A stretch of 64,000 bases of DNA from Dictyostelium discoideum. Its lineage: Eukaryota. Shown one piece after another: positions 6,749 through 11,021 of this stretch (the first letter of the stretch is position 1; the number at the start of each line of letters is the position of its first letter). The DNA lies in NCBI GenBank assembly GCA_000004695.1, contig CM000154.2, positions 1,088,001 through 1,152,000 on the forward strand, written 5' to 3'. A program made the position numbers and the translations under genes. The notes under the pieces were generated by a model. That model made no database searches. It was given only the letters and a program-made list of their open reading frames with translations, and was not told where the DNA came from.

Positions 6749-6927
6749 ATGATTAAAAGTTTATTATTATTAATATCTATAATTATTGGAATTGTTATTT
6801 CTCAAGAGGGAGCTTACCCACCAGCAGGTATTTATGTTGGACTTTCATCAAATTTCTTAACAACTGAAGGTGAATCTGTAAGTAAAATAATTATATTAAA
6901 TATTAAAGTTTAATTCTAATTTTTATT

Positions 6928-6958
<31 letters not shown>

Positions 6959-8458
6959 TTAACTATTAGCTAACAACATATGCTCAAAATGAATTATTAT
7001 CAATGTCATTACCAGATCAATCAGGATCTTCAAGTAAAGCATCATATACATTCACATCTTTTAAACTTGGTTTAACCTTGGATAATATTTTCTATAATCA
7101 ATTACAAACAGATGTTTATCAAATGTAAATTATAAAATAATCATAATAATAATAATAATCCTAGAAATAATAATTAATAATCCATGATACTAAATTTTTA
7201 AAATTTTTTTTTTGGAAATAGTGGTTGGGAAACAATATCTTTTGAATTACAATGGAATTATCATATTTGTGCAAATGCAATTTTCAATCCATGTGAAAAT
7301 GGTAATATTCAAGTTGGTACAGTTTCAGGAGCATCTGCAGCCGTTGCATCAAATGTTTATGTTGAATTTAATTCAACATCAACATCAATCATTGCAACCA
7401 ATACAACTATGGCATTTGATCAAGGTGCAGTTCAAGTTAATGTACATTGTTCAAATGCAATTTGTGTTATTCCAGTTAGTGATATTGCCAATGAAGTCGC
7501 ACAAAACTTTGTTACTGAGCTCACAAATGGTATCACCAAAGCCATTAATGAACAAGTTCCAACCATCGAAGCATTATTTACACCAATTAAACAAATTCCA
7601 ATGACTCTTTCAAATGGTGATTCATTTTGGATCAATTTAGAGGGTACTTTAGTTGAAGAGAGTAATCCAACCGCTGATTTACCAACAATTACCGCTGCTT
7701 TAAATGGTGGTGTAATTTTAGAGAATACTGATGGTAATTTCGTTTATCCATCACAAATTCCATCCTACATTCCAACCGATTCACAATTGGAATCTTTCAC
7801 TAGTGACTATAGTATTGTTGTAACTGGATTTTTCATTGAATCTTTATTTGACGCTGTTTTCGCTTCAGCTTTACCAATGACAATCAATCCAAGTCAAGTT
7901 CCATCGGCTTCACCTGTTCAATTGAATACTAGTGATGGCTTTTTCAGTGGTGTTGCTCCAGGTTTATCTCAATACCCAAATCTTGGAATTCAAGTTAATT
8001 GTTATTCACCCGTTACTCCATTGGTTAGTATTAACTCATCAGCAATCTCTTTATTCAATTTGGAATTATCAGCTGATTTCATCATTTTAAATGGTGATAA
8101 TCCATTCACTGCTTTCACTGTTTTATTCACAATCGATGCTTCTCTTTCAACTGAAATCCTCACTGATTCTCCTTCAACTTTTTCTTTAAATTCAACTCTT
8201 GCCTCTATGACTCCAAACGCTACAATCGTCACTAGTACCATTGGCTCAGTTGATGCAACTGGTTTCGTACAATTAATGCAAATGGTACAAGGTGTAATTA
8301 AATTACCTTCTCCAGCTTATTCTGTACCTTCAAAATATTCAATGTCAAATGTTGAATTACAACTTGGTACTCAAGTAATTCAAATCACTTTTGATTTAAT
8401 TGATTCCTCTTTACTAGAAAAACAAAAAATTATTAAAAAATCTATAAATTTTAATTGA
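6749..8458 (+). CDS. Secreted BPI/LBP/CETP-fold (TULIP-like) protein, paralog A. Exons are 6749..6877, 6970..7124 and 7222..8458, giving about 507 aa.
   Basis: Exon 1 encodes a signal peptide, MIKSLLLLISIIIGIVISQEG... and ends in phase 0 at the GTAAGT donor at 6878. Exon 2, after the acceptor AG at 6968-6969, reads LTTYAQNELLSMSLPDQ... and ends in phase 2 at GTAAAT at 7125. Exon 3, after the AG at 7220-7221, reads GWETISFELQWNYHICA... The N-terminal region aligns by eye with the BPI N-terminal barrel (GLSSNFL..L...ELL..LPDQSG...Y.F.SF.L....). The intron positions are identical to those of the paralog at 9291. Confidence 0.6.
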
Positions 8459-9290
8459 ATATATAAAACGAAATAAAATAAAATAAAATAAATAAAAAAA
8501 TTATTTGTAATAATATTTTAAAAAATAAATATCAAATTCCAATTATTCTTAATTTTAACTAGATTCATGATGATTGATACTCCTCTTGTTTAATACTTGA
8601 TTGTGGTGGTAGTGGCTGTGGTTGAAATTTAATATTTTAAATTCAAACAATAACTATTGTAATAGAGTAATAGGGTTTTAAATACACTTAATTCACCTTT
8701 TTTCTTTATTATAAATAATATTAAATTAAAATAAAATTAAAAAAATAATGATGAAACTACATTAGTTGTTGATCTACCTCCAAAAAATGATGATCCATCT
8801 CTCTCTGGTTGTTGTGGTTGTTTAAAACTACTAGATCCGCCTCCAAAAAATGATGATACATCTTTTTCTGTTTGTGGTGGTTGTGATTTAGTTGGTGTTT
8901 GAAGTGGTTTTTGTTATTGTTGTTGTGGTGGGTTGTGTTTGTGGTACTTGTGAAACCAACTTAAATATATGTTTCTTTATTTTCTTATAATAATAAAAAA
9001 ATCAAATAATACAAGAGCAACGACAACAATAACCAGACCATCACCATTGTTTAGATGCAAATTGTTTTTTGTTTTTATTTTAATTAAATTTCCAAAAGAT
9101 TTTTTTTCTTTTTTTTTTTATTTTTTTTTTTTTATTAAAAAAAAAAAAACCCAAACACTTTTTTTTATTATAATAATTATTCCTCATAATCCATGTATTT
9201 AAAAAAATAAAAAAATTATTCTTCATAATACATGTATTTTAAAAAATAAAATATATATATATATAAATATATTTATTTATTCAAAATAAA

Positions 9291-10986
9291 ATGAATAAAA
9301 CTATCATACTTTTATTAATTTCAATTATTTTTGAAATAGTAATATCATCATCCGTTGATGGTAATTATCCAGCTGGAGGTTTATATTTTGGTGTATCATC
9401 AAATTTCTTGGTTGGTGAATCTGAAAAGGTATTTATCAATCATTAATTGTCCCTTAATTTCGTAAATATTAACCTAAATTTAAAAAAAAAAATAAAATAA
9501 AAAATATATATATAGTTTACTCAATATGTTCAAGATGAATTATTAGCAATGGATTTGCCAGATCAATCAGGTGATTCAGATGGAGTACAATATTCATTTA
9601 CTCATTTTAAACTTGCATTAAATTTACAAGATTTCTTTTATGCACAATTAGGACCTGGTGTTTTTCAAATGTAATTCAAATATTTTATTTAAAAAAAAAA
9701 AAAAAAAAAGAGATTATAAAACTTTGTTAACTTTGTTATATCTATCTTTTTTAAAATTAGGGGATGGGATACTATTACATTTAATTTACAATGGGAATAT
9801 GAAATTTGTGTTAAAAAAGTTGTAAAACTTTGTGAATCAGGCACAATTACAGTTTATACAGCAAGTGGTCAAAGTGTATCATTAGGAACTACATTAGATG
9901 TTTTATTTAATTCATCAAATGCAAAGATTGAGGCAACATCAACTGTTATGCCATTTGAGGCGGGGGCAGTGGTTGCAAGTGTACATTGTACAGATTCGGT
10001 TTGTTTAATACCAATCAATGATATCGTGAGTGAAGTTTCATCACAATTTGTATCACAAGTTACAAATGGTGTTACAAAGGCTATAAATGATAAAGCCCCC
10101 TCTATTGAGCAACTGTTTACACCAATTAAACAGATACCAATAACTATGGATAGTGGTAACCAATATTGGATTGATTTAGAGGGTTGTTTAGTTGAAGCTA
10201 ATTATAGTTCAAATTCACCATCCACCATTACCGCTGCTATTAATGGTGGTATAGTTTTAGAGAATACTGATGGTAATTTCGTTTACCCAACTCAAACACC
10301 ATCCTATGTACCATACGATTCACAAATGGAGTCTTTCACATCAGACTACTGTATCACTATCACTGGTTACTTTATTGAGACCCTGTTGGATGCTGTATTG
10401 GTACCAGAGTTTCCAATGACAATTCAACCATCACAAATACCAGCTTCATCACCAGTTCAATTGAATACAAGTTCTGATTTCTTTAGTGGTATCGCTCCAA
10501 ATTTAACCTCTAAATATCCAAATGTTGGTATTCAAGTGAATTTAATGCCACCAACAATACCAACGGTTACGATCAATTCAAGTGCTATCATTTTAACAGA
10601 TTTTGAAATTTCAACTTCATTTTTAGTGTTAACTGATAATGATGATGCTATTCCTGTTTTCAATGTTTTGTTCAAATTTGATGCTGAAATCCAAACCACC
10701 CTTTATACTGATAGTGTCTCTGTTTTCTCTTTAAATTCAACATTACTATCAATAACACCAAATGTAACCATAACTGATTCAAACGTTGGTTCTGTCGATG
10801 CCACTGGTTTTGTTCAACTAATTGAAATGGCACAATCTATAATTAAAATTCCATCAATAACTTATCCTGTACCTTCAAAATATTCAATAACAAATGTAAA
10901 TTCACAACTTGGTGATCAAATAATTCAACTTACTTTTGATTTAATTGAAAATTCAACTAATCAAAAATATCTTAAAAAATCTGTAA

Positions 10987-11018
<32 letters not shown>

Positions 11019-11021
11019 TGA
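9291..11021 (+). CDS. Secreted BPI-fold protein, paralog B. Exons are 9291..9428, 9516..9670 and 9761..11021, giving about 518 aa.
   Basis: Exon 1 encodes a signal peptide, MNKTIILLLISIIFEIVISS, and has its GT donor at 9429. Exon 2 is 155 nt, exactly the same length as in paralog A, and ends at GTAATT at 9671. The last acceptor AG is at 9759-9760. The protein is about 60% identical to paralog A across exon 3. The C-terminus reads through an A20 tract (KKKKKKK) to a TGA at 11019-11021, whereas paralog A stops earlier. Confidence 0.6.

Follow-up and report, generated by a model that had tools for sequence, protein, structure and literature searches.

Two acidic BPI-fold paralogues in tandem on chromosome 5 of Dictyostelium discoideum: gene identity, duplication history and a candidate antibacterial role

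A 64,000-nt stretch of Dictyostelium discoideum chromosome 5 (hereafter the window; positions are counted from its first letter) carries two adjacent genes at 6749-11021, which raise the question of what they encode, how they came to lie side by side and whether they serve the amoeba against the bacteria that it ingests. A first-pass annotation, made from the letters alone, had taken them for a locally duplicated pair of secreted paralogues with the fold of bactericidal permeability-increasing protein (BPI) and lipopolysaccharide (LPS)-binding protein (LBP), and for a candidate innate-immunity locus. The interval was found to hold two head-to-tail three-exon genes, both on the (+) strand, and in an exact-sequence look-up the products match the AX4 reference proteins at every residue: gene 1 is XP_636902.1 (DDB_G0288095; Q54JE8; U522A_DICDI, 'UPF0522 protein A', BpiA) and gene 2 is XP_636903.1 (DDB_G0288097; Q54JE7; U522B_DICDI, 'UPF0522 protein B'), the latter presumably being BpiB; they are called A and B below. 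Identity, BPI-type fold and duplication history, taken together, are close to certain, and to the single explanation that joins these three with a mechanism of bacterial permeabilisation we assign a probability of roughly 0.8. The locus is already catalogued in dictyBase, in UniProt and in the literature of the Cosson laboratory as putative BPI genes: antibodies exist against 'Bactericidal permeability-increasing protein BpiA' (Q54JE8, DDB_G0288095) and against BpiC (Q55BA2, DDB_G0271242) (PMC7149914), and the portion of the expression tables of PMC7078664 considered here gives DDB_G0288095 the product name 'putative bactericidal permeability-increasing protein'.

Through the exact full-length protein matches, the exon coordinates given for both genes in the first-pass annotation proved identical to those of the AX4 reference models. 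In gene 1, exon 1 (6749-6877), which is backed by the exact match with XP_636902.1 and by hydropathy, encodes a predicted signal peptide (about residues 1-18) and the start of the N-terminal barrel; it is followed by intron 1 (6878-6969; 92 nt, GTAAGT...TATTAG, phase 0), exon 2 (6970-7124; 155 nt), intron 2 (7125-7221; 97 nt, GTAAAT...AAATAG, phase 2) and exon 3 (7222-8458, including the stop), which encodes the remaining N-terminal barrel, the central sheet and the C-terminal barrel. Gene 2 consists of exon 1 (9291-9428), with a predicted signal peptide of about residues 1-19, intron 1 (9429-9515; 87 nt, GTATTT...ATATAG, phase 0), exon 2 (9516-9670; 155 nt), intron 2 (9671-9760; 90 nt, GTAATT...AATTAG, phase 2) and exon 3 (9761-11021, as in the AX4 reference model). 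The coding sequences, of 1521 nt and 1554 nt, are in frame and encode 506 and 517 amino acids (aa), respectively. All four introns are GT...AG introns of 87-97 nt and both exon-2 donors read CAAAT/GT, so that the equivalent introns, the 155-nt second exon and the caa-at donors described earlier hold, with phases 0 and then 2 in both genes. The quantitative reverse-transcription PCR (qRT-PCR) primers of PMC7078664 fall at 6799-6818 in exon 1 (forward) and, as the complement, in exon 2 near 7005 (reverse); the assay thus spans intron 1 of gene 1 and lends indirect support to that junction. The two proteins share 57% identity across 496 aa; the divergence of the copies noted in the first-pass annotation stands, and its figure of about 60% is replaced by this measured value. 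At the DNA level, 6741-8529 and 9283-11067 are 67.6% identical, from just 5' of the ATG to about 50-70 nt beyond the stop, and a tblastn search revealed no third copy within the window.

The case for the fold comes from structure models and from a family profile. The AlphaFold2 model of gene 1 is confident (predicted local distance difference test score, pLDDT, 83.6; predicted template-modelling score, pTM, 0.78) and that of gene 2 is fair (pLDDT 74.1, pTM 0.65). For both models the top five PDB matches in Foldseek are BPI, LBP and CETP (E 1e-20 to 4e-27, probability 1.00), with template-modelling (TM) scores of about 0.5 over about 495 aligned columns, that is, over the full length, and the next-ranked matches are other TULIP proteins (P47/OrfX, Takeout, JHBP and SPLUNC1). 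Both products are predicted on these models to form two TULIP barrels with a central sheet, the 'boomerang' fold of BPI, LBP and CETP, and the modelled N-terminal barrel is recognisable by fold, not by sequence. By sequence, gene 2 matches the C-terminal domain family PF02886 above threshold (30.3 bits, gathering score 23, E = 3.6e-7). A profile built from 15 dictyostelid relatives reached human BPI in the PDB (1EWF/1BP1) at E = 5.9e-6 and in collinear fashion, with profile 291-411 on BPI 250-370; phmmer with the sequence of gene 1 alone gave no matches in the PDB, and BPI was reached by the family profile only. Among 1.84 billion representatives, 332 proteins matched the profile at E <= 1e-3; of the full-length matches 46 were sampled, and PF02886 was present in 40 of these and PF01273, the N-terminal domain family, in 23. 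Within the close family, six of the 15 members matched PF02886 and three matched PF01273 at E < 0.1. The BPI/TULIP fold that had been proposed for both products was borne out by the AlphaFold models and Foldseek searches, with the family profile reaching human BPI, and neither of the two outcomes named in the first-pass annotation as refuting came about.

Both proteins probably also enter the secretory route. Their most hydrophobic 15-residue stretch lies at the N-terminus, within residues 1-19 (Kyte-Doolittle 2.9-3.0), and AlphaFold confidence is low over both N-termini, which fits a signal peptide; by this heuristic test the hydropathy maximum supports the signal peptides claimed for the pair.

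How the two genes came to be neighbours was read from a distance-based neighbour-joining tree (200 bootstraps), from intron positions and from gene order. The A orthologues of D. discoideum, D. cf. discoideum, D. citrinum, D. dimigraforme and D. firmibasis form one clade and the B orthologues another, each with 100% bootstrap; the two clades join at 97%, leaving out the single gene of D. purpureum, and the BpiC-type proteins form a separate clade (98%). Introns were compared over 6878-7221 and 9429-9760 of the window and over two fetched loci (L002 8001-9617; L005 3001-4831). In D. firmibasis and D. citrinum both copies are split into three exons, the second being 155 nt long, and intron 1 is the sole intron of the D. 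purpureum gene. The phase 0 intron 1 is common to A, B, the D. purpureum gene and BpiC, where it lies in the same alignment column, whereas the phase 2 intron 2 occurs in the A/B clade only, being absent from D. purpureum and from BpiC, whose second intron lies elsewhere. Intron 2 is a marker of the A/B lineage that is older than the duplication, and a clean example of an intron gained or lost in one lineage. Copy B has both introns in the positions and phases of copy A, so that it was genomic DNA that was duplicated and not a transcript, and retroposition as the origin of copy B is ruled out on the same ground. The order of a UBR-box gene, A, B and a minus-strand gene of about 260 aa is the same in D. 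citrinum and in a second D. discoideum assembly, and D. purpureum shares the downstream neighbour with the window. Phylogeny, common intron positions and synteny support the local duplication claimed by the first-pass annotation, and they point to a DNA-level event that followed the split from D. purpureum and preceded the radiation of D. firmibasis, D. citrinum and D. discoideum.

D. firmibasis (CM069767.1; loci L001 8001-9721 and L003 8001-9753) raises the question of whether the copies were adjacent from the start. Its syntenic site holds A only, with both flanks collinear with the window, and its B lies about 386 kb from A on the same chromosome, in opposite orientation and among unrelated neighbours. 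An inversion behind this arrangement is unsupported, since both flanks of A are collinear and the collinear genes include the one that follows B in D. discoideum. The duplicate could have landed elsewhere first, as in D. firmibasis, and have come to lie beside A only later, in the lineage of D. citrinum and D. discoideum; the solitary A between collinear flanks and the distant, reversed B would follow directly, and D. firmibasis is the earliest branch within the A clade. We consider this order unlikely, though, because an exact head-to-tail copy directly 3' of its parent is what unequal crossing-over produces and is an improbable result of a secondary move, because a tandem origin with one relocation in D. 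firmibasis takes an equal number of events, and because the retained introns exclude retroposition. We read the arrangement, from gene order and gene structure, as a probable tandem duplication after which B was relocated in D. firmibasis. Gene-conversion tracts between the tandem copies were looked for in sliding 60-codon windows, with the dispersed D. firmibasis pair for comparison, and none was found; nucleotide identity between A and B ranged from 0.56 to 0.75 among the windows listed and was similar in all three species.

The two copies have not diverged evenly. In Nei-Gojobori comparisons of D. discoideum with D. firmibasis or D. citrinum, A has a ratio of non-synonymous to synonymous substitution rates (dN/dS) of 0.15-0.18 and B one of 0.10-0.12, values that place both copies under purifying selection, and every outgroup is 3-9 identity points nearer to A than to B. 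B seems to have changed fast early and then to have been frozen, which fits a change of function, and the sub- or neo-functionalisation suggested in the first-pass annotation is plausible in view of the asymmetric rates and of the constraint on both copies. The longer branch of B and the greater closeness of the outgroups to A could also be taken to mean that B has become redundant and is decaying towards a pseudogene, the more so as B in its AX4 model continues into a poly(A) tract and DDB_G0288097 is not among the entries listed from the RNA-seq table of PMC7078664. Decay is nevertheless hardly credible: B has kept its open reading frame and all its splice sites in D. discoideum, D. cf. discoideum, D. 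citrinum and D. firmibasis, its dN/dS lies below that of A, and its AlphaFold model is a complete BPI fold. Two genes that have both been preserved by purifying selection are the better description of the pair.

The poly(A) tract itself concerns the 3' end of gene 2. In the window the gene ends AAT TTA AAT TTA, six AAA codons, AAG and TGA, giving a protein that ends NLNLKKKKKKK. The last eight codons, LKKKKKKK (10995-11018), are present neither in a newer chromosome-level D. discoideum assembly nor in the orthologues retrieved. The newer assembly has one T fewer at 10995-10996, so that it reads AAT TTA AAT TAA and encodes 509 aa ending NLN, and the other strains and orthologues retrieved have a stop at the position of 10995-10997 and end NLN or NFN. 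The lysine tail of the AX4 model is probably spurious, a read-through of the ancestral stop into the A-run that would be due either to strain polymorphism or to homopolymer error. The window, which has a G+C content of 25.6%, contains long A/T runs, and across 7.7 kb (6287-14016) it is 99.66% identical to the newer assembly; nearly all the differences are A/T homopolymer lengths, for example at 6932-6935, 11176-11178, 12039-12044 and 13101-13103. This shows that homopolymer run lengths are unreliable in the D. discoideum genome.

What the pair does in the cell has to be approached through BpiC, which is catalogued as 'UPF0522 protein C' (U522C, Q55BA2). A bpiC knockout destroys Klebsiella pneumoniae and Escherichia coli more slowly (PMC8545105), a defect that was later refined to permeabilisation and not killing (PMC10107278), and extracts of bpiC-knockout cells retain full bacteriolytic activity in vitro (PMC7886984). 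On the analogy of BpiC, A and B would enter the secretory and endolysosomal pathway, where the hydrophobic pockets of their barrels could bind amphipathic lipids of ingested bacteria, either LPS or other envelope lipids, and such binding could help to permeabilise the envelope of the prey in acidic phagosomes. The charge of the proteins bears on how this might be done. Gene 1 encodes a protein with an isoelectric point (pI) at or below 4.05, the floor of the calculator, with 10 lysines and arginines against 41 aspartates and glutamates and a net charge of about -31 at pH 7; the protein of gene 2 has a pI of 4.24 and a net charge of -26 at pH 7. With a pI of about 4 and a net charge between -26 and -31, the two proteins are unlikely to make an electrostatic attack of the human-BPI type. 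In Dictyostelium phagosomes, whose pH is very low, the calculated net charge of both is near zero, and extraction or shuttling of lipids at low pH, with the protein almost uncharged, would be likelier than the cationic electrostatic attack of human BPI. All the dictyostelid relatives are acidic, BpiC included (pI 4.39), and because the acidity extends to the family member with the knockout phenotype, it is compatible with that phenotype. Whether BpiA and BpiB specifically share in antibacterial permeabilisation is, by this analogy, an even bet.

Published expression data are available for BpiA. In the portion of PMC7078664 considered here, DDB_G0288095 has a low expression (AveExpr 1.5), with a log2 fold change of -1.53 on K. 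pneumoniae KpGe and of +2.14, about 4-fold, on Bacillus subtilis in the list of differentially expressed genes, and it was picked as 'B3' among the genes that respond specifically to B. subtilis. The first-pass annotation had proposed looking for expression during growth on bacteria, and for gene 1 the answer from these parts of the study is that expression is prey-dependent, up on B. subtilis and down on K. pneumoniae KpGe.

Several observations weigh against an antibacterial, BPI-type reading of the pair. In sequence, the Pfam hidden Markov model check held for PF02886 in gene 2 and failed elsewhere: in the single-sequence search gene 1 had no match to PF02886 and gene 2 none to PF01273, and PF01273 is below threshold in both, the score of gene 1 being 15.7 bits against a gathering score of 28.8 (E = 0.013). 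In charge, neither protein has a cationic N-terminal domain, the N-terminal halves containing 4 lysines and arginines to 20 aspartates and glutamates in gene 1 and 9 to 26 in gene 2. The canonical Cys135-Cys175 disulfide of BPI did not map onto the gene products with MAFFT, in an alignment that is unreliable at 15% identity; in this unreliable alignment the cysteines of human BPI face A153, T156 and T196 of gene 1, and the four invariant dictyostelid cysteines, which form two local pairs (C111/C119 and C171/C176), face BPI residues other than cysteine. In function, what is proposed for BpiA and BpiB is borrowed from the genetics of BpiC, a paralogue with 36% identity, so that the pair is linked with innate immunity only by analogy. 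In expression, a low-abundance BpiA transcript that is induced by a Gram-positive bacterium without LPS does not fit a simple LPS-binding role, and DDB_G0288097, as said above, is not among the entries listed from the PMC7078664 table.

Part of this evidence would suit proteins that are not antibacterial at all. A and B may be general lipid-transfer or lipid-scavenging proteins of the PLTP/CETP type, acting in lysosomes, in the medium or during development, in which case 'Bpi' would be a label for the fold. In fold they resemble CETP and LBP almost as closely as BPI, they are highly acidic with no cationic tip, the bacteriolytic activity of bpiC-knockout extracts is complete in vitro (PMC7886984), and BpiA is expressed at a low level in vegetative cells according to the expression data at hand. 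Such a role is possible if doubtful, since BpiC, of the same family and equally acidic, shows reproducible permeabilisation defects in vivo (PMC8545105, PMC10107278) and BpiA transcription, in the portion of PMC7078664 considered, varies with the type of bacterium offered. Prey permeabilisation through low-pH lipid handling remains the reading that we prefer for the pair.

A more specific form of it can be imagined, in which BpiA and BpiB would be prey-class-specialised paralogues for envelope lipids other than LPS, for instance the lipoteichoic acid or anionic phospholipids found in Gram-positive bacteria. This idea, which is speculative and in our view quite improbable, arises because BpiA goes up about 4-fold on B. 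subtilis and down on Klebsiella, because BpiA has no cationic LPS-binding tip, and because B diverged fast yet is tightly constrained. If it were true, bacterial targets would be partitioned among the amoebal BPI paralogues through a charge-independent extraction of lipids at low pH.

The surroundings of the pair were also inspected. Between the two genes lies a spacer of 832 nt (8459-9290, no strand assigned), which presumably holds the 3' end of gene 1 and the promoter of gene 2. Within it, a unique island at 8540-9060 has 27-37% G+C, a coding-like value for this genome, and carries a 51-nt direct repeat (8771-8821 and 8834-8884) and, on the minus strand, short reading frames in which the motif 'SSFFGG' recurs; the island has no long open reading frame, and nothing in the D. 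citrinum spacer, the fetched loci L001-L004 or the rest of the window matched it. Upstream, 1342-6480 (+) encodes a 1712-aa UBR-box, PRT6-type N-recognin E3 ligase, whose location is conserved in D. firmibasis, D. citrinum and the second D. discoideum assembly. About 13 kb downstream, 24474-28985 (+), with a start probably near 23196, is a gene for an integrin-beta-like adhesion protein of the SibA-E type; it matches PF24909 and PF24619 (E = 1e-61 to 1e-80), and the family is linked to adhesion and phagocytosis.

That gene models and family were rebuilt base-exact from raw sequence alone validates the first-pass annotation. The present analysis adds a placement of the duplication after the D. 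purpureum split and the finding of two constrained copies with unequal rates, and the acidity of the whole amoebal family argues against a simple transfer of the mechanism of human BPI. Published expression data, as far as considered here, point to a response of BpiA to Gram-positive bacteria (PMC7078664). These results could guide the choice of knockouts and of prey.

The nearest known system is BpiC itself, which belongs to the same UniProt family, UPF0522, and has 36% identity to A and to B across about 495 aa. It resembles them in length, in its N-terminal signal-type segment, in its acidity and in the column and phase of intron 1, and it carries PF02886. It differs in being genomically unlinked, on another contig with unrelated neighbours, which from the DDB_G numbering we take to be on chromosome 2, as against chromosome 5 for A and B. 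It also differs in the position of its second intron and in its separate clade, and it is the sole family member with knockout phenotypes (PMC8545105, PMC10107278). In the part of PMC7078664 considered, the BpiC transcript is unresponsive to bacteria, whereas that of BpiA responds.

Human BPI (1BP1/1EWF) and LBP (4M4D) have the full-length two-barrel fold in common with the Dictyostelium pair (Foldseek E 4e-27 to 4e-23), and the C-terminal barrel of BPI is in addition collinear in sequence with the Dictyostelium family (E = 6e-6, profile). Both human proteins have a signal peptide, as is predicted for the pair, and are either secreted or located in granules; sequence identity is 13-16%, and the Dictyostelium proteins are about 45 aa longer. 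Human BPI has a pI of about 9.4 and a lysine-rich N-terminal domain, in a sequence part of which agrees with the 1EWF alignment. Its cationic N-terminal surface serves LPS binding and killing, whereas the Dictyostelium pair is without a lysine-rich N-terminal tip. CETP and PLTP (2OBD) share the TULIP two-barrel fold as well (E 1e-20 to 1e-21), scoring below BPI and LBP in both fold searches. They are non-cationic and act by shuttling lipids, and in this respect they may be the better mechanistic analogy for the acidic proteins of Dictyostelium.

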